NCBI GenBank assembly: GCA_965199855.1
Contig: OZ241326.1
Span: forward strand, 448,001-512,000
Source: a bacterium
GTDB taxonomy: Bacteria; UBA8248
DNA: 64,000 nt
Direction: 5' to 3'
The position numbers were made by a program, and so were the translations under genes. The notes under the pieces are model-generated. The model was given only the letters and a program-made list of their open reading frames with translations, made no database searches and was not told the DNA's origin. Below, in pieces: positions 43,216 through 58,929 of this stretch. Numbering within the stretch: the stretch's first letter is position 1; the number at the start of each line of letters is the position of its first letter.

Positions 43216-44253
43216 TCAGTTGAGGCAGACCTGCTTGAAGTCCTTGAAGTGATCCAGCACGTGCCCGGTTCCGCGAACCACGGCGGTGAGCGGATCCTTC
43301 ACCCTGTAGATGGGAAGCCCCGTCTCCTCGTGGAGCCTCGCGCCGAGTCCCTTCAGGAGCGAGCCGCCGCCCGCCAGCACGATTCCGCGCCGGTGGATGT
43401 CCGAGGCGAGCTCGGGGCTCGTCCTGGAGAGCGCCTTGCCGATGGACTCGACGATGGCCTTCACGGGGCTGTCGAGCGCCTCGCGCGCGTGCCGGTCGCT
43501 CAGCGTGATGGTGCGGGGGATGCCGGTGGAGACGTCCGCGCCGGCCACCTCCGTTTCGAGGGGCTCCGCGAGCGCCGTCGCCGCGCCGACGGCGATTTTC
43601 ACGCGCTCGGCCTCGAAGGCGCCGATGGAGAGGGCGTGGCGCCTCTTGACGTAGCGCTGGATGCACTCGTCCATCGCGTCTCCCGCGATGCGGAGGGACT
43701 CCGCGTAGGAGACGGCGTATCGGGAGATGACGGCCACCTCGGTCGTTCCGCCCCCGATGTCCACGATCATGGAGCCGGAGATTTCATGGACGGGCAGCTT
43801 GCTGCCGATGGCCGCGGCCATGGGCTCCTCTATCAGGTGGACGCGGGCGGCGCCGCACTGGGTGGCGGAGTCGATCACCGCCTTCATCTCGACGCTGGTG
43901 ATCCCGGCGGGGACGCAGATCATCATCGTGGGCCGGCCGAAGGAGCCCTTGGGGACGATGGCGCGGACGAAGTGGCGTATCATGGCCTTCGTCACGTCGA
44001 AGTCGGCGATGACGCCGTCCTTCATGGGCCGAACCGTCTGAATCGACTCCGGCGTGCGGCCGTACATCTCCTTGGCCTGCCTGCCCACCGCGAGCACGGC
44101 GCCCCCGTTTCCGGAGTTCAGGGCGACGACGGAGGGCTCGTCGAGGACGATTCCGCCGCTTTTCGTATAGACGAGCGTGTTCGCGGTTCCCAGGTCCATC
44201 GCTATGTTGGTTCCCGTCATCGCCCTGATCTTCTGCAGGACATGCAGCTTCAT
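43216..44253 (-). CDS. mreB: Rod shape-determining protein MreB-like actin
   Basis: DLGTANTLVY, EPSVVA, PMKDGVIADF, EEPMAAAIG, VDIGGGTTEVA, LAGGGSLL. Confidence 0.95.
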   Translation of the reverse strand: MKLHVLQKIRAMTGTNIAMDLGTANTLVYTKSGGIVLDEPSVVALNSGNGGAVLAVGRQAKEMYGRTPESIQTVRPMKDGVIADFDVTKAMIRHFVRAIVPKGSFGRPTMMICVPAGITSVEMKAVIDSATQCGAARVHLIEEPMAAAIGSKLPVHEISGSMIVDIGGGTTEVAVISRYAVSYAESLRIAGDAMDECIQRYVKRRHALSIGAFEAERVKIAVGAATALAEPLETEVAGADVSTGIPRTITLSDRHAREALDSPVKAIVESIGKALSRTSPELASDIHRRGIVLAGGGSLLKGLGARLHEETGLPIYRVKDPLTAVVRGTGHVLDHFKDFKQVCLN

Positions 44254-45710
44254 TCCTCGCGCCCCCCCATGAGACAGAGTTGATTCGCCGCGCCCCCCTT
44301 CTGGGCGAAGGCCAGCGCCTCGAGAGACGCCCGGACGAGGCTTTTCGGGTTTTGCGCGTTCTCCGGAAAGCACGCGGCGCCTATGGAAATGGTGATCCCG
44401 ACTTCTTTTCCCCCGGGGCGGAAGGGCGCGCGGCCGATGATGTGGATGATGCGCTCGGCCGCCGCCTCGGCGTATTCCTGCGAGGAGTCCCTGAGCAGCA
44501 GGAAGAAGCGCGGCCCCTCGCGCCGCGCCAGAATGTCGCTTCCCTTGACGAACTGCCGGAGGGCGTCGAAGAGGTGGAGGATCACCTCCTCCTCCGGCGC
44601 GTCCTCGAGCCCGGGCGCCGCGCCCGCGTCGGGGGCGATGCTCAGGAGCGCGAGCTGGCGCCCCCTGTCCCCGGCGTCGCGGAGCATTTCGGGAAGGCGG
44701 GAATGGAGGTATTCGGCGTTTCGTCCGCCGGTGAGGGGGTCGATCTCCAGGCGCGCCCGCCAGCGGGCCTCGTTCCTGCGGTGGGCGAGGGCGTCGGCGG
44801 CGGCCGCCGCCACGATTTCCCCCGGCTTCACGGAGGAGGCGTCGAAGCGGGCGCGCTCCCGGCTCGTGAACCCCAGACAGCCGAGCAGCTCGCCTCCCGC
44901 GATCAGGGGCAGGCACAGGGCGGAGCGGGCGTCGAAGCGCGGCTCCTCCGCGTGGAAGAGGGGCCGGGCGCCCTTCCGCCCCCGGAGGGAGGGCAGCCGC
45001 AGGCTCTCCCTTTTGGAGAGCGCGTAGCCCGCCACGCTGCCCCGCTCGCTGATTTCGACCTCGCCCAGGAACAGCTCGCCGAAGCCCGAGGTTCTCGCGA
45101 GGCGGGGGGTGCCTGCTTCCTCGTCGGCGAGGACGAGGAAGCAGGCGTCGAAGGGAAGCAACTCGCGCGGCGCCTGGCAGATCGCGTTCAGCAGCTGCTC
45201 CTCGCTCTCGCTCGCGCGGAGCGCGGAGAGGTAGCCGCCGAAGGCGGAGACGCTCATGGAGCGGCGCTCCGCCCGCGCGGCCGCCAGGGCGCCGTCTGTG
45301 AGATACGCGAATTGCTGGGCGAACCCCGCGAGTATCTTCTGGTCCCTCGACGTGAAGCACCAGCTTTTCTTGCTGTCGATGGCGAGCGCCCCCTTGCTGC
45401 GCGAGGAGGGCAGGGGCGCCGCCATGAAGGATTTGATGTCCTCGCTCCTGCCGTAGTAGCCGAGGACGATGGTGTCCTTGTCGAACTGGTTGACGCTCAG
45501 GGGCTCGTTGTTCTCCAGCACCCAGCCCATGAAGCCCTGGCCGGCCTCGACCGAGGCGTCCGCCACGACGTGGGGGCTCAGGCTGTGGTAGGCGGTGAGC
45601 TGGAACCTCCCGAGCCGCTTGTTTTCAAGGAACAGGCAGGCGGAATACGCCTCGGTCACGTTGCTGACGAGCGTGATGAGGGAGAAGAGGTCCCTTTCCA
45701 GATTCGTCAT
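44250..45710 (-). CDS. Tandem GAF domains plus degenerate GGDEF-like domain
   Basis: Two GAF-like repeats; IDPLTG..N and ITISIGAACFP, but ARREGPRF replaces RxGGDEF; ATGA-coupled to mreB. Confidence 0.8.
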   Translation of the reverse strand: MTNLERDLFSLITLVSNVTEAYSACLFLENKRLGRFQLTAYHSLSPHVVADASVEAGQGFMGWVLENNEPLSVNQFDKDTIVLGYYGRSEDIKSFMAAPLPSSRSKGALAIDSKKSWCFTSRDQKILAGFAQQFAYLTDGALAAARAERRSMSVSAFGGYLSALRASESEEQLLNAICQAPRELLPFDACFLVLADEEAGTPRLARTSGFGELFLGEVEISERGSVAGYALSKRESLRLPSLRGRKGARPLFHAEEPRFDARSALCLPLIAGGELLGCLGFTSRERARFDASSVKPGEIVAAAAADALAHRRNEARWRARLEIDPLTGGRNAEYLHSRLPEMLRDAGDRGRQLALLSIAPDAGAAPGLEDAPEEEVILHLFDALRQFVKGSDILARREGPRFFLLLRDSSQEYAEAAAERIIHIIGRAPFRPGGKEVGITISIGAACFPENAQNPKSLVRASLEALAFAQKGGAANQLCLMGGREE

Positions 45711-45746
45711 TTCCACCACCCGACGGGACGGATTCGGAATGGAGCG

Positions 45747-45920
45747 AATATAGCAGGGCGCATTCGGCTGTTTCAAGTAATTTTTTCACTAATCCTCATA
45801 TCCTTTTGTATTTATTTGTTTTATTCATGTAAAAATTTTACGATTGACGCCGAAACCTCAAGCGCTTCGTGCGGTGATTATCGTAAAACATTGATATTAA
45901 ATGATTTATTTTATTTCGAA
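45747..45920 (-). promoter_or_regulatory. AT-rich promoter region with sigma70 boxes and IHF-consensus site
   Basis: Minus strand TTGAAA-N18-TATATT (45776-45747) with extended TG; TATCAATGTTTTA IHF consensus near 45884-45896. Confidence 0.55.
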
Positions 45921-46028
45921 TGAGGCTTCCGGCCGCGCGCGCCGCCGGAGGGAGGAGGGAACGCCATATCTTGGGTCGCGCTCGTCCGCGGACGCCAGAT
46001 GTTGCGCCCGTCGGAGGGGGACGCGCCG

Positions 46029-46382
46029 CTAGTGGTCGTAAGCCCTGGTCGCGCTCGCGGGAATCATGCAGACGAACTCCATCGCCTCGCCCGAGTCGTT
46101 GTGGAAGGCGTGGCGCTCGCCGGGGGCGACGAAGACGGCCGAGCCCGGCGCGATGGGGCGCGCCTCGCCCTCGACGACCACCCGCCCCTCGCCCCGGAGC
46201 ATGAACACCTGATGCTCCCAGGGGTGGGCGTGGTCGGGCGTCTGGCCGCCCGCCTCTATCTCGATGACGCGCATCGCCATGCCCGTCTCGCCGTCGCGCT
46301 CGCTCAGCAGCCAGCGGACGCCCGCGCCCCGCGCCGCCTTCTCGGTCTTGAGCTCCGCCTCCTTGTAGTTCATCACCTTCAT
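46029..46382 (-). CDS. Cupin domain protein
   Basis: TPDHAHPWEH and PGERHAF cupin_2 motifs. Confidence 0.88.
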   Translation of the reverse strand: MKVMNYKEAELKTEKAARGAGVRWLLSERDGETGMAMRVIEIEAGGQTPDHAHPWEHQVFMLRGEGRVVVEGEARPIAPGSAVFVAPGERHAFHNDSGEAMEFVCMIPASATRAYDH

Positions 46383-46467
46383 CGCTCCGCCTCCCTTGTC
46401 GTTCTCCCGGCCGCCCATCCTGAGCGCGGAAGCATACCACGCCGCCGGGGAGGGGGGGAAAGTGGAG

Positions 46468-47502
46468 TCAAGCCATACCCTCCGCATTCATCAGGATATG
46501 TTTTCCTATCTGCTCGGCAAGCCTGACGGGAACCGCGTTTCCTATCTGCATGGCGATGTGCGTGTTGGACCCGAAAAACTGGTATCCATCGGGAAAGGAC
46601 TGCAGAGCAGCGGCTTCGCGCAACGATATCGCCCTGTCCTGTGTCGGATGTCCGTATCGGCCGTTGGATATGCTGTGGCAACGACCCGTGAGGGCAGGTG
46701 CGGGACTGTCCCAGCGCATTCGTCCGTAAACGTCGGTGTGCCCTTCGTAGTTTCCCTTGTGACACGCCAATCTCAGGTGTTCCGGCCACGCCCTGCGGTC
46801 CCCACCATTATGCGGCGTCATCCTCAGTCGCTCCAGGTTCAATTCCGAGATGGACGCGGCGACATGGTTCGGCACCTCCAGATCGCGCTTCCCGGCCGCA
46901 ATCGCGGGAAAATGGGAAATGGCCTGTTTCACCGTCCTGAACGGAAGAAGTTGTTCGCCATATTTCGGCTCGGGCAACGAGGGTTGTCGGCGTCTCGTCG
47001 CCAGCAATATGAGGCGTCGTCTGTTCTGGGGCACCCCGTAGCATTTGGCGTCAAGAACGGCGAAAATATATCCGTAGTCGTTTTCGGTCAGCATCCTCCG
47101 AAACCGGCGAAAGGTACTGAAGCCGGGGACTCTCGCAAGGCCGGGAACATTTTCAATCAGCACGCATTCCGGCAAAACGGCTTCGACCAGACGTCCGAAT
47201 TGCCCCAGCAATGTCGCGTCATGCCGTCGCGCATTTTTTTTGCGTTGCGGACTGAACGGCTGACATGGGGCGCATCCGGCGAAGAGAATCTCATCAGATC
47301 GTTTGGTTCGACATTCAAGGCCCAGGTCCTTCGGTTCGAGCTCCCTTATGTCCGCTTTGACGAACCGAACACGAGGATTGTTGCGCTCGTATGTGGAACG
47401 GCAACGTCCGTCGCGGTCAACTCCGGCAATGACTTCAATGCCGGCGTCAAGCAAGCCGCGGGTCAGACCTCCGGCTCCGCAGAAGAAATCCCAGGCTTTC
47501 AT
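46468..47502 (-). CDS. C5 DNA cytosine methyltransferase
   Basis: FCGAGG, CAPCQPFS, IENVPG, GVPQNRRR, REAAALQSFP, QIGNAVP. Confidence 0.96.
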   Translation of the reverse strand: MKAWDFFCGAGGLTRGLLDAGIEVIAGVDRDGRCRSTYERNNPRVRFVKADIRELEPKDLGLECRTKRSDEILFAGCAPCQPFSPQRKKNARRHDATLLGQFGRLVEAVLPECVLIENVPGLARVPGFSTFRRFRRMLTENDYGYIFAVLDAKCYGVPQNRRRLILLATRRRQPSLPEPKYGEQLLPFRTVKQAISHFPAIAAGKRDLEVPNHVAASISELNLERLRMTPHNGGDRRAWPEHLRLACHKGNYEGHTDVYGRMRWDSPAPALTGRCHSISNGRYGHPTQDRAISLREAAALQSFPDGYQFFGSNTHIAMQIGNAVPVRLAEQIGKHILMNAEGMA

Positions 47503-48620
47503 GCTTCTTCGGCGCCGGCGCCGCTCCTCAACTTATCAATGATCTCGTCGCGCCACGAATCTAAATCCCGATCCGGCAGACCCGGGCGGCCGGCGGTTTG
47601 CATGTACGCCCACGCGATCAACTCCCGAAACGGACTGTCAAGGGAAGCGATTCGGAGAAATGGTTTGTCTGACATGCCGATGTCTTCAACGGGAATGAGT
47701 GCCAGATCGCGCAGGTTGGCCGCCATTATAGGGATTTGATCCTTCAGGCTTGGGAAAGGGATGACAGCTCCCAGGTATCCTTGGGTAAGCATTGAACTGC
47801 GCAACTGATCTTTCAGCTTCCGAATTTTCATGCCTTTCAGGCTTGTAGTTTCAAGACCGTTTTTCATGGAACAGCATTTTGAAACCAGGACATCGCGCAC
47901 TTTCGGTTCGCGGTTTCCCGAGGCTGCAAGGTCACATGATGGCGTCAGAACTACCCGGAATGAAGCGGGATCATCAGGTGATGCGCTCCCGTCTCTCAGG
48001 ATATCGCCCAGTCGGATGTCTTCGGATACCGGAGGGAGCAGATATTGTTCCCAATCGGCGAGCGTTGTTTCGTTTGCTGGCGGCTCGTCCATCAGGGCGG
48101 CAAGACGACGCCTGCCCGATCGTTTAATGGTGTCAACGATACGTTGCGTATCGTCACGGAAGGCTTCAAAGGCATAGCGCGCGACATCCCGCATGGCCTT
48201 GGAAAAGGAGCGCCTGATATCCCGTTCGGCTTCTTTCAGTGTATCGACATGGGGGAGGAATTCACGAATTGCGTCCAATACCTTTTGTTCACTCCCACTC
48301 CCCTTTTTGATGCTTTTTACGAATGGGTGCCGCTCATACTTTTCAGGAATGTCAGGTAGTCCTGAATACACAACTATAGGGCAGAAATGTTTCTTCCAGA
48401 TGATGTCGAGAGTATTCCAACCCTCTCGCTCTCCTTCGCTGAAAACGTTACCGACAAAGAGATCGAGGATCACGATGTCAGGGCGGAACGACAAGAGTTT
48501 CTTCTTTGCATCATCAAAATCCGATACTTTTTGGCGCACGTTCTCTATCTTATCTTTTGTCAGCTTCCGGGCGGGTTCTATGACTTTTCGATCATCCTCG
48601 ATAAATAGCAGTTTCAGCAT
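47499..48620 (-). CDS. Response-regulator receiver fused to an uncharacterised C-terminal domain
   Basis: LLFIEDD, DIVILDL, PIVVYSG and conserved K; C-terminal RLGDIL...VVLTPSCDL. Confidence 0.85.
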   Translation of the reverse strand: MLKLLFIEDDRKVIEPARKLTKDKIENVRQKVSDFDDAKKKLLSFRPDIVILDLFVGNVFSEGEREGWNTLDIIWKKHFCPIVVYSGLPDIPEKYERHPFVKSIKKGSGSEQKVLDAIREFLPHVDTLKEAERDIRRSFSKAMRDVARYAFEAFRDDTQRIVDTIKRSGRRRLAALMDEPPANETTLADWEQYLLPPVSEDIRLGDILRDGSASPDDPASFRVVLTPSCDLAASGNREPKVRDVLVSKCCSMKNGLETTSLKGMKIRKLKDQLRSSMLTQGYLGAVIPFPSLKDQIPIMAANLRDLALIPVEDIGMSDKPFLRIASLDSPFRELIAWAYMQTAGRPGLPDRDLDSWRDEIIDKLRSGAGAEEA

Positions 48621-48631
48621 ATATCCCTCTT

Positions 48632-50794
48632 TTATGCTCGGCGTTGTTTCCGCAGAGGCAAGTCGAAAGCGAACGACGCGCCGCCTTTTGGTCCGTTGTA
48701 TTCTGTCCGCATGCGGCCTTCGTATGCGGCAACCAGTTCCGAAGCTACCGTAAGTCCCATTCCTATTCCGCCCGGTTTTCTTGTCACGCCGGGCCAGAAC
48801 ACCTTTTCCGCATAGTCTTTATCCAGGCCGGGGCCCGTATCCTGCACATCTACCAAGACACGCTCTCTGCCATTGATGGGCGTAAGGCTGAATTTCAGTT
48901 CTCTGCGTTCTTTCGGGACTTCCCGCATCCAATAGACCGCGTTTGTTACCAGATTGAGAATAATCGCGTCGAGTTCTCCTGGATCGACCGCCACCTTGGT
49001 TTCGGAGTCCGGGACAAGGCATCGCACATGGCTTCTTTTTATCTCGCTTCGATGGAGATACAGGCAATCCCTGATTCGCTCCTCCAAAATCGATTGGCGC
49101 TTTCGTCTCCTGAAATTACGGCTTGCGAGAGGGGCGAAGGTATCGGCGAGACGCTCCAGCGCATCTATCGCCCCGTCGGCGGAACGGAATTCTTCTTCCA
49201 GCTCTTTTTCCTTGAATGGACTGAATCTGTCCCGGATGAATTTCAGAAAGCTCCCGAGGGCTATCGTGCGATTGCGGATTTCATGCACCAGCATGTGGGC
49301 GAGGGTTCCGACGGTCGCCAGCCTGCTGTAATATATGAACCGCTCCTGAATCGCTTTGCGCGTCGAGTCCAGCGAACTGCTGAAAGTGCGAAGAAGAGGG
49401 ACCGCTTCGGATGCTTCAGCTCCTTCTTCTGCAAGCGCGGCAACTTCCTCGGTCAACTCTTCCGCGGACAGCTTCTCGAACAGATCATCCATCGGTTTTT
49501 CACGGTCGGGTTTAACGCGATCTTCATCCCGCTCATTTTCGAGAAGGGCAACGACCGCTTTCAGAATTTCCTCGAACTCCGCTACTTCGATACATGAGGC
49601 GAGGCGCTCGCGGTCGCTGGTGTCCTCTATTTTCGGATTACATTCAGCCGATACCGAGACGTAGCCGACAATCTGGCTCGTGCTCAGCCGCGTTCCGATC
49701 TTGCTGACGCGCCGCAGATCGAGTCCCAGCCAGTCGCGGGCGTTGTCGGATTTGGGCAGCACAAGAACGCCGTCCCGATATATGGAGATGCCTTTGTGCG
49801 CGCGAATGGATTTTCTGACCTGACTTTTCTGGAAGTCAAATTTTTCGGCGATTTCCTGCGTATCTTCACCGGCGATGTCCCATGCTCGAATCTCAAAAGA
49901 AAATGGCCCGCAATTCGCTCCCTTTTCGGAATATGGAAACTTCTCTTTATCTTGAATGGCGTCATGAATTTGTCGCCACGCAAGTTTCAGCTTCCTTCCC
50001 CTGGCGACATCGTCTTTCACAAGAGGGGCGAATCGATATGAACCCTCCACGTTTCCGTCCCTGTCGACACGCCCCCGAATGCTGTATTTCGGTTTCGACA
50101 AAAATTCGGGAGATTCGATCTTGACTGCCTCGGTTTGCTCATCTCCGAAACCGGAAAGGGAGATGTTGAAGTCGCCGAGGTCTGAAAATGGGGAGAGCAA
50201 ACGACCGAGATTCTCTTCGAGGTCCGATATGCGGCTTTCATTCCATTTTTCTTTCAGACCATAGATGCGCAGACGAGTTCCGGATTCACTGAAAGGCGAA
50301 CTGCCGGGATATTTTCTGCATCCCGCGAAGCTTTTCGATAGATCGTCTCCCTCGGAAATGTCGGACCAGTTGACGCTGACCTCCCAACAGGGCTTCCCAC
50401 GCGCCTTTGTCAGCATGCGAAGGCGTTTTCCGAGCCGCGCGACGGAAAGACGCCCGAGGCCTTTTTCACCGGAGACGCGACGCTCTTTCTTCCCGAGCTT
50501 CACAACGGGATTTATTTGCTTGTTTGGGGTCGCAACGAGGCACCAGACGTTCTCGATGATCTCTCTGGTCATGCCGCTGCCGTCGTCTTCGATTTCCAGA
50601 TACGCGCCCGGCCCAACATCTTCTCGAAATCGAAGCCAGACGTTTTGAGCAAAAGCATCGTATGAGTTTTTCACGAGTTCGATGACGGCCACGACGTCAT
50701 TGGTCACCAGGTCCGCTCCCAGAGCGGCGAATACCCTGGGGTGCATGCGGAAAGGTATCTGCTCGAAACTGCCTTCAGGCATTCTTTTCGCCAT
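48632..50794 (-). CDS. MORC-like GHKL ATPase fused to a histidine kinase
   Basis: N-terminal ELVKNSYDA, EDDGSGM, GEKGLGR; C-terminal H-box LVHEIRN, NLVTNA, DTGPG, GIGMGL; start uncertain (alternative GTG at 50833). Confidence 0.9.
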   Translation of the reverse strand: MAKRMPEGSFEQIPFRMHPRVFAALGADLVTNDVVAVIELVKNSYDAFAQNVWLRFREDVGPGAYLEIEDDGSGMTREIIENVWCLVATPNKQINPVVKLGKKERRVSGEKGLGRLSVARLGKRLRMLTKARGKPCWEVSVNWSDISEGDDLSKSFAGCRKYPGSSPFSESGTRLRIYGLKEKWNESRISDLEENLGRLLSPFSDLGDFNISLSGFGDEQTEAVKIESPEFLSKPKYSIRGRVDRDGNVEGSYRFAPLVKDDVARGRKLKLAWRQIHDAIQDKEKFPYSEKGANCGPFSFEIRAWDIAGEDTQEIAEKFDFQKSQVRKSIRAHKGISIYRDGVLVLPKSDNARDWLGLDLRRVSKIGTRLSTSQIVGYVSVSAECNPKIEDTSDRERLASCIEVAEFEEILKAVVALLENERDEDRVKPDREKPMDDLFEKLSAEELTEEVAALAEEGAEASEAVPLLRTFSSSLDSTRKAIQERFIYYSRLATVGTLAHMLVHEIRNRTIALGSFLKFIRDRFSPFKEKELEEEFRSADGAIDALERLADTFAPLASRNFRRRKRQSILEERIRDCLYLHRSEIKRSHVRCLVPDSETKVAVDPGELDAIILNLVTNAVYWMREVPKERRELKFSLTPINGRERVLVDVQDTGPGLDKDYAEKVFWPGVTRKPGGIGMGLTVASELVAAYEGRMRTEYNGPKGGASFAFDLPLRKQRRA

Positions 50795-51296
50795 GTGATT
50801 TACGTTTCCCTGCCTGTCGTGCTTTTTGACCACGACGCAATGGAGGAATCTCCATCAGCCTTCGCTTTGAATTCAGAAAATCCGCCGCTTTCTTCGCTAT
50901 GGCATCCAATGCTTCCATGCGGTTTGTCCCCGGCTTTCGGAATCCGCATTCCCAGATTGTCAGGACTCGCCACCCAAGGCTTTGCAACTCCGCCAGGGCC
51001 GCCGAATCGCGCCTCGCGTTTTCTTCGAGTTTTGTTTTCCACCACGCAGAGCGCGTTCCCGGTATCGAAGAAAGATGGCAACCATGATAATGCCAGAAAC
51101 ATCCGTGGATGAATACTACGGAGAGATGCTTCGGAAAAACCATATCAGGCGTTCCCGGCAGGTCTTTCCGATGCAGGCGATAGCGGAACCCCATCGCAAA
51201 GAGTCGCCGCCGTATCTCCAGTTCCACCTTGGTGTTCTTGGCGCGAACCGAAGCCATCATTCGGCTTCTGGTTTTTTTATCAACGGTATCTATCAT
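50775..51296 (-). CDS. vsr: Very short patch repair endonuclease
   Basis: RSRMMASVRAKNTKVE, LPGTPD, FIHGCFWH, GWRVLTIWEC. Confidence 0.95.
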   Translation of the reverse strand: MIDTVDKKTRSRMMASVRAKNTKVELEIRRRLFAMGFRYRLHRKDLPGTPDMVFPKHLSVVFIHGCFWHYHGCHLSSIPGTRSAWWKTKLEENARRDSAALAELQSLGWRVLTIWECGFRKPGTNRMEALDAIAKKAADFLNSKRRLMEIPPLRRGQKARQAGKRKSHGEKNA

Positions 51297-51387
51297 GGCT
51301 GCGGACTCGACAGGCATTGACGCTCAAGGCTTCATGCCTGAAAGAATGCTCCATCACCTCTCAAAATACCGCTTCGCCCCCGCGTTG

Positions 51388-51936
51388 TCACCCCAACGCC
51401 CCCTCCCGCCAGTCCTTCATCGCCGCGCGGGTGGCGTCGAAGGCGAGCTCGGCGAAGTCGATCTCATGGGGGGCGACGAGCTTGACCTCGGTCGTCTCGG
51501 CGAGGGGGCGGGGGACGCCGGAGGTTACCCGCCCCGCGTAGGCGATGAGGACGGTGGGGTTTCCCTCGAAGGAATACGCCCCCAGAAGCGCGTCCACCGC
51601 CACCTCCACGCCCGCCTCCTCGCGCGCCTCGCGGGCGGCGGCGGCGGAGAGGACCTCGCCCCGGTTCACGAAGCCGCCCGGAAACGTCCACAGCCCCCTG
51701 CCGGGATTGTGGGCGCGCCGCACGAGCACCGCGCGGCCTTCCATCGTGGCGACCACGCCCGCCGCCACCTTGGGGTCGAGAAAATGCACGTGGCCGCAGG
51801 CGGCGTCCGCGCAGCAGAGCTGGCGCGAGCCGTCTCCCTCCGTCCAGGGACGATGGACGAGCGGACTCCCGCATGCCGCGCAGAAGCGAACGCGCCCGCC
51901 CAGGTGGGGATGGGCCTCGGGCGCCTCCGCGCTCAA
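51388..51936 (-). CDS. NUDIX hydrolase with N-terminal zinc ribbon
   Basis: FCAACG...C..ACG, PGGFVNRGE....AAAREAREEAG. Confidence 0.9.
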   Translation of the reverse strand: MSAEAPEAHPHLGGRVRFCAACGSPLVHRPWTEGDGSRQLCCADAACGHVHFLDPKVAAGVVATMEGRAVLVRRAHNPGRGLWTFPGGFVNRGEVLSAAAAREAREEAGVEVAVDALLGAYSFEGNPTVLIAYAGRVTSGVPRPLAETTEVKLVAPHEIDFAELAFDATRAAMKDWREGALG

Positions 51937-57237: not shown

Positions 57238-57720
57238 ATGGCTTCGGGCAGGACGCTCTATCTGGCGAGTCCCTACGGGTTTTCCGCACAGCAGCGCGCG
57301 GGGCCCCTGAAGGCGCTCGTGGAGGCGCTCGAGGCGGCCGGCGCCGAGGTGTGGGAGCCGTTCTCCCGCAACAACCAGCCCGAGCGGCTGGCGCGCCCCG
57401 GCTGGGCCTGGCGCGTCGGGCAGGACGACAAGCGCGACGTGCGCGCGGCCGCCGGCTTCTTCGGGGTGGTGAACGGCTGCCCGCCGGACGAGGGGGTGAT
57501 GGTGGAGCTCGGCATGGCCATCGCCTGGGAGAAGCCCGTCTTCCTGTTTCGGGATGATTTTCGCCGCTGCACCGACTGCGAGGGCTATCCCCTGAACCTC
57601 ATGCTGTTCACCGGCCTGCCGGAGCGCGGCTGGGAAGCCTACTTCTACGCCTCTGTCGAGCAGATCGCCGACCCCGACAAGGCGCTCGCGCGCTGGCTGC
57701 GGGGCGAGCCCCTGCCGTGA
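57238..57720 (+). CDS. Nucleoside 2-deoxyribosyltransferase family protein
   Basis: YLASP, DEGVMVELGMA, NLML. Confidence 0.85.
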   Translation: MASGRTLYLASPYGFSAQQRAGPLKALVEALEAAGAEVWEPFSRNNQPERLARPGWAWRVGQDDKRDVRAAAGFFGVVNGCPPDEGVMVELGMAIAWEKPVFLFRDDFRRCTDCEGYPLNLMLFTGLPERGWEAYFYASVEQIADPDKALARWLRGEPLP

Positions 57721-57735
57721 GGGGAGCGCGCCGGG

Positions 57736-58929
57736 CTAGTATTTTCCGATGGCCTCGAAGTCCGGCTCGATGGCCCATTCGCCGGCTGCCGCTTTTGAAA
57801 GTTTGATAAAACCAAATTCTCTCAAGCGGAACAATTCCCTGACGGAAGTTCTTCCGGATACGTTTTTATAGATTTCCCGAATATAGGGAGATACGAGGAA
57901 GGTTCTCACGTCAAGCGCTTTCGAGGGATGATCTGAAAACGGGTCGTCCGGCTCCGTCTCCGAGATGAGAGAATCGAGAAGATTGTATTCCCTCTCGTTA
58001 ATCAGGCGTCTTCGTTCGGATATCTTTTTCCGGCGCGCCTGGGCGAGCATGTTTCGATAGACCACCCGGTTCAGCTTCGCCTTGATGAAGTTGTTGATTC
58101 CCCGGAGCTCCTCCGCGAAGCCTCGCAGACCGAAACCGACGAACGGCGTCAGGTCGAACGGCTGTCTTTCCCTGCATTTTTGGAGCAGCGTCTTGTATTC
58201 GCTCTCGTTTCGATAGAAATAATTCGACAGCCCGTAGAATCCGTGAACGTTGTATCCTCCCTGGAACAGTATGCCCGCCTCCGCGAGACGGGAGGTTCTG
58301 CCGTTGCCGTCCCCGAAGGGATGGAGCGTCACCAGGAAAAAATGCGCCAGCAGCGCCCGGATGGCGGGATGCTCCGCCGCCATCCGATCTGACCTCAGAA
58401 GCCCGATGTATTCGTCCATCAGAGCCGGCAGACGCTCATGCGGCGCGCCCCTGTGGACGCCTCCAAGCAAGGGGCTTCCGACTGTGACGGAAAAGTTTCT
58501 CAGGCTTCCGGGCGCGTTGTTGGTCGTGTCCTCGTTCTCGGTGATCATCTCGTGCATTCGCAGGATATCGGAGAGCGCGAAAGGGGCGCTGTCGGGCTGG
58601 AACCTCTCCTGAACCCATTTTTGCGCGGCCCCGGCGTTTCGTATCTGGATTTGCTCCCGGCTGGGCTTTGCGCCGGGAGGATCCGCGGCCGACTCCTCCT
58701 GAATCTCGATTTGTCTTGAGACCTCGGCTTCCGAGAGGGGGTTTCCCTCTATGGCCGTGGTGCCGTGAACCGCGCGAACGCGGTTCAGCCTGTTCAGCGC
58801 GTCTCGCCAGTCGGGAGGAAGAATGAGGCGGCTCATCGCCGCTTCCCGGGACGCTTCTATGGCGACGATGAGGTTTATGAGTCCCGAATGGTCGTAGCGG
58901 TATTCAAAACGGAATTTCTCCCAATCCAT
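57736..58929 (-). CDS. Fic family protein (class II, N-terminal inhibitory motif)
   Basis: HPFGDGNGRTSR catalytic motif, TTAIEGN inhibitory helix, possible C-terminal wHTH; lower GC. Confidence 0.92.
   Translation of the reverse strand: MDWEKFRFEYRYDHSGLINLIVAIEASREAAMSRLILPPDWRDALNRLNRVRAVHGTTAIEGNPLSEAEVSRQIEIQEESAADPPGAKPSREQIQIRNAGAAQKWVQERFQPDSAPFALSDILRMHEMITENEDTTNNAPGSLRNFSVTVGSPLLGGVHRGAPHERLPALMDEYIGLLRSDRMAAEHPAIRALLAHFFLVTLHPFGDGNGRTSRLAEAGILFQGGYNVHGFYGLSNYFYRNESEYKTLLQKCRERQPFDLTPFVGFGLRGFAEELRGINNFIKAKLNRVVYRNMLAQARRKKISERRRLINEREYNLLDSLISETEPDDPFSDHPSKALDVRTFLVSPYIREIYKNVSGRTSVRELFRLREFGFIKLSKAAAGEWAIEPDFEAIGKY

Follow-up and report, generated by a model that had tools for sequence, protein, structure and literature searches.

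What does a bacterial operon do that joins a cytosine DNA methyltransferase to a two-component pair and carries no restriction enzyme? This question is raised by an island of ~4.9 kb with a low guanine-plus-cytosine (GC) content, located at 46468-51317 on the minus strand of a 64,000-nucleotide stretch of DNA from a bacterium of the GTDB lineage UBA8248 (GenBank assembly GCA_965199855.1, contig OZ241326.1, positions 448,001 to 512,000). This whole stretch is called the window here, and all coordinates refer to it. Between a cupin gene and a NUDIX gene, four open reading frames (ORFs) of the island encode a Vsr endonuclease, a sensor kinase, a response regulator and a C5 cytosine DNA methyltransferase (Table 1). 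An earlier note, made from the sequence alone, had described them as a restriction-modification (R-M)-like cassette wired to a two-component relay. Here, the regulator's C-terminal domain is predicted to have the fold of MazF/CcdB/Kid toxins, and the island is read as a methylation-linked two-component toxin cassette, i.e., a module for abortive infection or addiction whose toxin is gated by a His-Asp relay. We assign this reading a probability of about 0.5.

A conserved unit of Vsr, kinase, regulator and methylase

The four ORFs have a GC content of 0.51-0.58, compared with 0.70-0.74 in the flanks and the genome. Their spacing is that of an operon: the vsr ORF overlaps the kinase ORF, the kinase is followed after 11 nt by the regulator, and the end of the regulator overlaps the methylase start by 4 nt (ATGA). 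The description of four tightly spaced, lower-GC genes was thereby confirmed, with the vsr end now at 51317, the position given before (51296) being the second ATG. The absence of a restriction endonuclease was borne out as well, since domain searches including Pfam, PADLOC and NCBIfam found none among the four genes of the island, with the caveat that Vsr is itself a nicking endonuclease.

For comparison, the four window proteins were placed by tblastn on 84 loci, comprising two from genomes, 80 from metagenomes, one from a viral contig and one from a congener. Of 208 pattern matches in metagenomes, 164 were confirmed as relatives, and the best 80 of these were taken. The regulator was present in all 84 loci. 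The kinase adjoined it in 64 of the 64 evaluable loci and lay directly upstream in 63; the sole miss (L004) was an unoriented or reverse locus in which the kinase was still adjacent. The methylase followed the regulator directly in 63 of 74 evaluable loci. Among the 11 others, the methylase of L004 was adjacent (an orientation artefact), six loci had the methylase upstream of the kinase, one had Vsr and then the methylase downstream, and one had Vsr and then the contig end; no methylase was seen on the short contigs L064 and L089.

Gene order was assessed in the 23 loci that were well flanked, i.e., had 3.2 kb or more of upstream and 2 kb or more of downstream sequence. The methylase was found in all 23 and Vsr in 19. 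The order of the window, Vsr-kinase-regulator-methylase, prevailed (15 loci), so that the neighbourhood search proposed in the earlier note recovered the four-gene arrangement. Four loci had kinase-regulator-methylase, two had methylase-Vsr-kinase-regulator, and one each had kinase-regulator-methylase-Vsr and methylase-kinase-regulator-Vsr. The position of Vsr varied between upstream and downstream, and in L058, L060 and L062 its gene lay on the other strand. When the 204 ORFs within 3 kb of the cassettes were clustered, no fifth recurring gene emerged: the largest cluster was a Bro-N protein (five loci), followed by a PEP-utilising enzyme (three loci). Neither a separate endonuclease, nor a standalone receiver gene, nor an antitoxin-like gene recurred among these flanking ORFs. 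With five loci as the upper limit for any additional gene, the cassette is not a decayed R-M system, and the concern that it might be a remnant whose homologues carry an endonuclease fails. The cassette is a conserved, self-contained unit without a separate nuclease partner.

By their family matches, the identities of Vsr and of the C5 methyltransferase are unambiguous. Vsr matched PF03852 (3.3e-29), TIGR00632 (137.6 bits; cut-off 97.85) and the PADLOC Vsr model (1.3e-32), and its residues D58 and H76 were at least 97% conserved in 35 homologues. The methylase matched PF00145 (3.3e-54) and TIGR00675 (143 bits), and P79-C80-Q81, E117-N118-V119, Q159xRxR and G321-N322 were at least 97% conserved in 65 sequences. 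Its variable region was also highly conserved across the 65 cassettes, which suggests one target motif common to the cassette methylases. The best matches of the methylase among solved structures were eukaryotic DNMT1 chains (5gut_A, 1.9e-27, including the region past motif VIII); the match to the bacterial M.HhaI was weaker (5.2e-16).

The kinase consists of three parts: an N-terminal MORC/MutL-type GHKL module, a middle region of 325 residues and a complete class-I kinase core. The two ATP-binding modules that had been noted in this protein were confirmed as HATPase_c_3 (PF13589, residues 48-162, 1.7e-16) and HATPase_c (PF02518, residues 617-728, 1.8e-20), and the length of ~720 aa becomes 733 aa when counted from the GTG. 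In 38 kinases, the GHKL motifs E52/N56/D59, D83xGxG and G122xKGxG and the kinase motifs H517-E518, N627/N631, D665xGxG and G689xGxG were at least 97% conserved. Residues 493-728 (DHp and CA) aligned to the FixL kinase core (2.5e-18), NCBIfam histidine-kinase models spanned residues from about 490 to 731, and the DHp aligned with HisKA-type kinases (AtoS, FixL). The NCBIfam model for the restriction enzymes BbrUII/HgiDII (NF050001) matched the GHKL part only (3.7e-19, 68.7 bits); this match covered model positions 8-200 of 659 and did not reach the cut-off of 550 bits. A PADLOC REase_II match was likewise confined to the GHKL part (residues 36-159).

The middle region of the kinase contains 36 invariant columns (alignment A4, 35 sequences), including the acidic and basic residues D367, R374-R375 and D404-T-S-D-R-E409. 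Profile search of PDB sequences returned nothing for it, no Pfam family and no nuclease family matched, and the ESM Atlas gave unnamed clusters only. Sub-threshold matches to Rv2175c_wHTH, a winged helix-turn-helix (wHTH) family, were obtained at residues ~326-361 in 23 of 35 kinases (best 1.2e-5), and HTH_23 matched in six of the 35. These matches are a weak hint that the middle region may bind DNA.

The regulator has no Pfam family at E ≤ 0.01, the match to PF00072 being sub-threshold (E 0.023), and a precomputed PF00072 match was present in seven of 120 homologues, among the matches listed. Its homologues numbered 686 proteins at E ≤ 1e-3 in a word-seeded search in which 8,000 candidates were scored. 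The AlphaFold2 model of the whole regulator, built from a 35-sequence alignment, had a predicted local distance difference test score (pLDDT) of 81.6 and showed a receiver and, after two long helices, a C-terminal domain set apart from it. Structural comparison with VIA placed the receiver fold of the model close to 3cu5_B (Z 15.4; root-mean-square deviation (rmsd) 2.2 over 123 residues). D9, D53 and K106 of the receiver were at least 97% conserved in 67 sequences. All the motifs named in the earlier note, the H-box and the N, G1 and G2 boxes of the kinase as well as the intact receiver, are thus present and at least 97% conserved. Kinase and regulator have the motifs that define a two-component pair, and phosphotransfer from His to Asp is predicted.

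The regulator's C-terminal domain

The earlier note had left the effector of the receiver-effector protein of unknown kind; the receiver proved intact, and the effector now has a predicted fold assignment. Since whole-protein fold searches had been swamped by the receiver domain, the effector was folded alone. Its AlphaFold2 model (pLDDT 83.4; predicted template modelling score 0.76) was compared exhaustively by VIA with 48,161 representative PDB chains. Only 12 of these chains reached Z ≥ 5 (10.3-6.6), and all 12 were MazF, CcdB, Kid or CptN-type toxins. The list was headed by MazF-mt3 (8zws_A) with Z 10.3 and an rmsd of 2.8 over 103 of 105 residues, and included S. aureus MazF (Z 9.7), CcdB (Z 9.1), Kid (Z 8.2), seven further MazF-type toxin chains (Z 8.7-7.7) and CptN (Z 6.6). 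Two ToxN chains ranked next (Z 4.3 and 3.8), and unrelated chains scored 3.6 or less. The top rows listed by Foldseek were nearly all MazF and included CptIN and CcdB. Thus, the effector is predicted to have the MazF/CcdB/Kid toxin fold.

The likeness extends to a pattern visible by eye, GD[IL] ... VVL[ST]P, in which GDIL...FRVVLTP of the effector recalls GD[IL]...RPxVVLSP of MazF. In contrast, extra helices and invariant SCD and DSPFRE motifs of its own set the effector apart from MazF and CcdB, and it has no detectable sequence relationship to MazF/PemK/Kid or CcdB and does not belong to PF02452. No identity was obtained from phmmer against PDB, from Pfam at E ≤ 10 or from PHROGs, and no helix-turn-helix (HTH) family was matched (Pfam at E ≤ 10; 60 members). 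An earlier reading of 'CD...EPK' in the regulator as a PD-(D/E)xK motif was dropped after the fold result.

In an alignment of 60 effector sequences with a mean column identity of 35%, 12 columns were invariant: D206, S228-C229-D230, P297, D328-S329-P330, R332-E333, W337 and R345. These invariant residues are mostly polar and suggest an active site rather than a mere binding surface. Because of this pattern, an RNase-like activity is favoured over a CcdB-like gyrase poison, albeit with low certainty. A homodimer prediction with two copies of the effector gave a median score of 0.38 (mark 0.42; controls 0.00), i.e., no verdict, and was not used.

The family is large. A search of 1.84 billion representatives with the effector profile yielded 1,023 clusters at 50% identity with E ≤ 1e-3, 556 with E ≤ 1e-10 and 278 with E ≤ 1e-30. 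In most of the best 150 clusters, the protein was 355-400 aa long and carried the domain C-terminally.

Genomic site and mobility

Full-length copies of the cassette were found in two of 51 genomes of the phylum and two of 23 of the genus, a third match being receiver-only. The cupin-NUDIX site was compared across four genomes of the genus, and it carried the cassette in two, an R-M system in one and ~0.9 kb in one (G033, L134). The second cassette-bearing genome (G026, L133) had the same four genes at this site, plus an RraA-like gene and a DDE insertion sequence transposase; amino-acid identities were 76% for the methylase, 60% for the regulator, 73% for the kinase and 74% for Vsr, and the flanking NUDIX, MBL and cupin genes were about 78-83% identical. 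The closest relative among the loci compared (G034, L132; flanks about 88%) instead held an HSDR_N_2 protein, an N6 methylase (N6_Mtase) and a specificity subunit (Methylase_S). Within the genus, the site between cupin and NUDIX is a hotspot for cargo.

A complete Vsr-kinase-regulator-methylase cassette was also present on the IMG/VR contig L091 (1692-9204), where a gene for a large terminase (phrog_15, 2.9e-110) precedes it by ~0.8 kb on the upstream side, and the module therefore also travels on phage-like elements. Neither tRNA genes nor convincing flanking direct repeats were found at the island borders. The island is horizontally mobile and patchily distributed. Among public sequencing runs, five runs from four studies held at least half of the sampled 31-mers of the cassette; two of the five were sponge metagenomes (shares of 0.76 and 0.70), and no RNA run was among the holders listed.

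Table 1. Features of the island and its borders (window coordinates)
Feature	Position	Strand	Description
cupin gene	46029..46487	-	borders the island
C5 cytosine DNA methyltransferase	46468..47502	-	344 aa; PF00145, TIGR00675
regulator	47499..48620	-	373 aa; receiver and C-terminal effector domain
effector domain	47502..48065	-	regulator residues 186-373; predicted MazF/CcdB/Kid-like barrel
two long linker helices	48066..48245	-	about residues 110-177; conserved R170, R171, A175, D178; from model and conservation
receiver (REC) domain	48246..48620	-	regulator residues 1-125; E8/D9, phospho-acceptor D53, S86, K106
sensor kinase	48632..50833	-	733 aa from GTG; about 716-720 aa from internal Met codons
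histidine kinase core	48635..49366	-	DHp (H517-E518-I-R-N) followed by the N, G1 and G2 boxes
kinase middle region	49364..50341	-	residues 165-490; strongly conserved; wHTH-like signature at ~326-361
GHKL (paraMORC-like) ATPase module	50150..50737	-	kinase residues about 33-228
vsr	50775..51317	-	Vsr T:G mismatch endonuclease; 180 aa from first ATG; alternative start 51296
promoter-like site GTGACA-17-TATTTT	51363..51391	-	immediately upstream of vsr; weak
NUDIX gene	51388..51936	-	borders the island

Four promoter-like sites were found, compared with 2.5 expected from shuffles, and the vsr site alone was not significant. Like cupin and NUDIX, the other flanking genes, GAF-GGDEF and MBL-fold, are host genes. 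The GAF-GGDEF gene (44250-45776, minus strand) lies downstream of the cupin gene in the same direction, and this synteny is retained in relatives; the AT-rich sequence between the two genes (45777-46028) lowers the GC content to about 0.61. A second low-GC islet (57238-58929; GC 0.57-0.60) encodes a Fic/DOC-family protein of 397 aa (PF02661, 1.1e-13), and the adjoining gene encodes a nucleoside 2-deoxyribosyltransferase-like protein (PF05014, 1.3e-24).

Proposed mechanism, related systems and alternatives

The following sequence of events is proposed for the toxin cassette. As judged from its family, the C5 methyltransferase would mark host DNA at one motif, and Vsr would mend the T:G mismatches that arise from deamination of 5-methylcytosine (5mC), limiting the mutational cost of the mark. 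Through its MORC/MutL-like GHKL clamp and the wHTH-like middle region, the soluble kinase may read unmarked DNA, which could belong to a phage or plasmid entering the cell or, once the methylase is lost, to the host chromosome. ATP-driven dimerisation would lead to autophosphorylation of H517 and transfer of the phosphate to D53 of the regulator, for which the motifs are present. Phosphorylation of the receiver would then release or dimerise the domain of predicted MazF/CcdB fold; since MazF and CcdB act as dimers, dimerisation is a possible mode of toxin release. The effector might then halt the cell; metal-independent endoribonuclease activity is the likeliest means, gyrase poisoning the alternative, and the outcome would be abortive infection or post-segregational killing. 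The cassette thus probably answers unmethylated DNA by cell arrest and not by DNA cutting. It resembles an R-M system in which a phosphorelay, not a nuclease, would serve as the restriction arm; we hold this account as a whole to be about as likely as not. The suggestion in the earlier note that the output is signalling instead of direct cleavage fits an output domain of non-DNA-binding type with a predicted toxin fold. Of that note's interpretation, the conserved cassette, the intact His-Asp pair and the missing restriction enzyme stand; sensing of unmethylated DNA by the GHKL module is a conjecture.

Several results weigh against this reading. The toxin fold has the predicted structure as its only source: the best Foldseek match of the effector had an E-value of 1.1e-3, with none at 1e-3 or better, none of 60 family members matched a Pfam family or showed a PemK/MazF link, a profile search of PDB with the effector found nothing, toxins included, and an hhalign comparison with 21 PemK/MazF sequences taken from related genomes returned a probability of 0.4%. 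R222 lines up by eye with the catalytic arginine of MazF and is replaced in part of the wider family; therefore, a MazF-type mechanism cannot be assumed. For a kinase that senses DNA, the sub-threshold HTH matches are the sole backing. Phosphorylation through the relay might either activate or silence the effector. PADLOC 2.0.0 contains no model for the kinase-regulator pair, and full-text literature searches returned no experimental study of the kinase-regulator-methylase cassette or its sister family.

That sister family was described computationally by Bellieny-Rabelo, Pretorius and Moleleki (2021, Genome Biol Evol; PMC8011034). According to the accessible text, the same architecture occurs in 644 regions of 628 strains, with a set of 664 proteins: kinases with HATPase_c_3, HEF_HK and HATPase_c adjoin Response_reg_2 proteins, and C5 methylases and Vsr are encoded close by. 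The statement in the earlier note that kinase fusions had been noted by comparative genomics was true and understated the extent of this work. The available part of the paper holds no experiments and gives the C-terminus of the regulator no fold or function; its Discussion speculates that a two-component-like system controls R-M directly or indirectly. The two pairs share the soluble kinase architecture (HATPase_c_3, DHp and HATPase_c) with paraMORC ancestry, an adjacent receiver-like protein without a known output domain, and the C5 methylase and Vsr partners. They differ in that the present kinase does not match PF19191 and the present regulator does not match PF19192, even at E ≤ 10, and in that Response_reg_2 regulators have about 600 aa versus 373 aa here. 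A six-frame search of the whole genome with PF19192 gave no match at E ≤ 1, and the cassette-bearing genome G052 had no PF19192 match either. Global alignment of the effector with the Response_reg_2 family by hhalign failed; against 53 Response_reg_2 proteins, one local match of 36 columns was obtained (probability 85%, E 6.2e-6). It contains the PxCDLV effector motif and aligns GDIL..FRVVLTPSCDLV of the present effector with GHVL..yWLCLSPACDLVPGQK of Response_reg_2. From these alignments, the present pair and HEF_HK/Response_reg_2 are read as sister families that share an effector core. The finding was only partly anticipated in print; the fold assignment for the regulator's C-terminal domain is new here.

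A precedent for a His-Asp relay that gates a cell-killing effector in phage defence is Detocs, for which, according to the accessible text, experiments proved the relay: mutants of the His and the Asp abolished defence, and the outcome was abortive infection (Rousset et al., bioRxiv 10.1101/2023.01.24.525353). Here as in Detocs, the response regulator bears an effector in place of the usual DNA-binding domain. As far as described in that text, however, the sensor of Detocs is of the TPR type, a third gene supplies a 'buffer' receiver and the effector is mostly a PNP ATP-nucleosidase, and Detocs lacks the methylase, Vsr and GHKL sensor, all three of which are present here; the cassette has no standalone receiver gene, no match to PNP or another Pfam effector, and a different effector fold. 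In contrast to toxin-antitoxin systems, no antitoxin gene is present, and the fused receiver and linker helices occupy that regulatory place. The methylation-associated defence system (MADS) was rejected as a match, since it has eight genes and an N6 methylase.

The GHKL part of the kinase points to the paraMORCs, which Iyer et al. (2008; PMC2292703) placed, in the text available, alongside cytosine methylases and Vsr in R-M operons and described as often fused to nucleases. In the accessible main text of that paper, 'receiver' and 'two-component' occur zero times, and the two instances of 'histidine kinase' shown belong to the GHKL acronym. The likeness of the present kinase lies in its intact GHKL motifs and R-M-type operon context; with regard to the S5 domain, the middle region gave no sequence match. 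VcSduA, a paraMORC3-type GHKL-nuclease protein, acts against phages and requires both its ATPase and its nuclease activity, and control of the nuclease by the GHKL domain is the hypothesis of its authors (accessible text of PMC12137116). Compared with such proteins (VcSduA, BbrUII/HgiDII), the present one has a histidine kinase where they have a nuclease as the C-terminal module, and its effector resides in a protein of its own.

Other accounts of the island have to be weighed against the toxin cassette. It might be a selfish addiction module that kills cells losing the methylase or the island, as Type II R-M systems do, with any phage protection incidental. A mobile, patchy island in an exchange hotspot, its occurrence on a phage-like contig and an output of toxin-type fold are all in keeping with this, and the available Discussion of PMC8011034 recalls R-M systems as selfish elements. 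The mechanism is, however, the same as that proposed above, the two accounts are non-exclusive and sequence analysis cannot separate them; moreover, a relative has a classical R-M system in the hotspot, which equally fits defence cargo. We consider pure selfishness unlikely. A further possibility, which we judge improbable, is a cryptic nuclease, where the middle region of the kinase (165-490) or the C-terminus of the regulator would cleave DNA under control of the relay. The resemblance of the kinase N-terminus to BbrUII/HgiDII, the frequent nuclease fusions of paraMORCs and the many invariant acidic and basic residues of the middle region speak for it, but the BbrUII match is limited to the GHKL part, the middle region matched no nuclease family, and the fold class of the effector is that of an RNase or gyrase poison, not of a DNase.

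Two accounts give the relay a role in DNA maintenance. The pair might sense nucleotide or DNA status and tune the activity or expression of the methylase or Vsr, serving R-M or methylation homeostasis. The H-box HEIRN, which we take to be typical of bifunctional kinase/phosphatases, was counted in its favour, as was the speculation on the sister pair in PMC8011034. An output domain without HTH match and predicted to be a MazF/CcdB-type barrel does not suit DNA binding, no restriction enzyme is present to be regulated, and the invariant polar residues of the effector point to catalysis; this account is still less probable than a cryptic nuclease. Alternatively, a DNA-damage or mismatch checkpoint could be centred on Vsr, with the MutL-like GHKL module working with Vsr at T:G mismatches, like MutL in E. 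coli, and the relay pausing growth during repair of the deamination damage. Vsr was found in 19 of the 23 well-flanked loci, usually directly upstream of and overlapping the kinase, and the accessible text of PMC2292703 likens paraMORCs to MutL in very-short-patch repair, citing a paper on the interaction of E. coli MutL with Vsr. Yet Vsr is missing from four of these 23 complete loci and variable in position, the methylase is present in all 23, and Vsr accompanies C5 methylases in general, which makes the checkpoint the least probable account.

If the toxin-cassette reading is true, a relay with exchangeable toxic outputs would link R-M systems, two-component signalling and the toxins of toxin-antitoxin systems. 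That self-marking by 5mC, read by a MORC-like ATPase and passed through a His-Asp relay to a toxin of MazF/CcdB fold, forms a widespread class of immunity is a tentative proposal, more doubtful than the toxin cassette itself. With 1,023 effector clusters, the family is large, and current defence-island annotation misses it because it is absent from PADLOC 2.0.0. The fold assignment makes what was a receiver plus unknown domain testable. Since the methylase, among solved structures, is nearer to DNMT1 than to M.HhaI and its sensor partner resembles MORC, eukaryotes' coupling of MORC proteins to DNA methylation could have a prokaryotic antecedent in the cassette. It would offer a tractable bacterial model for MORC-type GHKL ATPases that read the methylation state of DNA.

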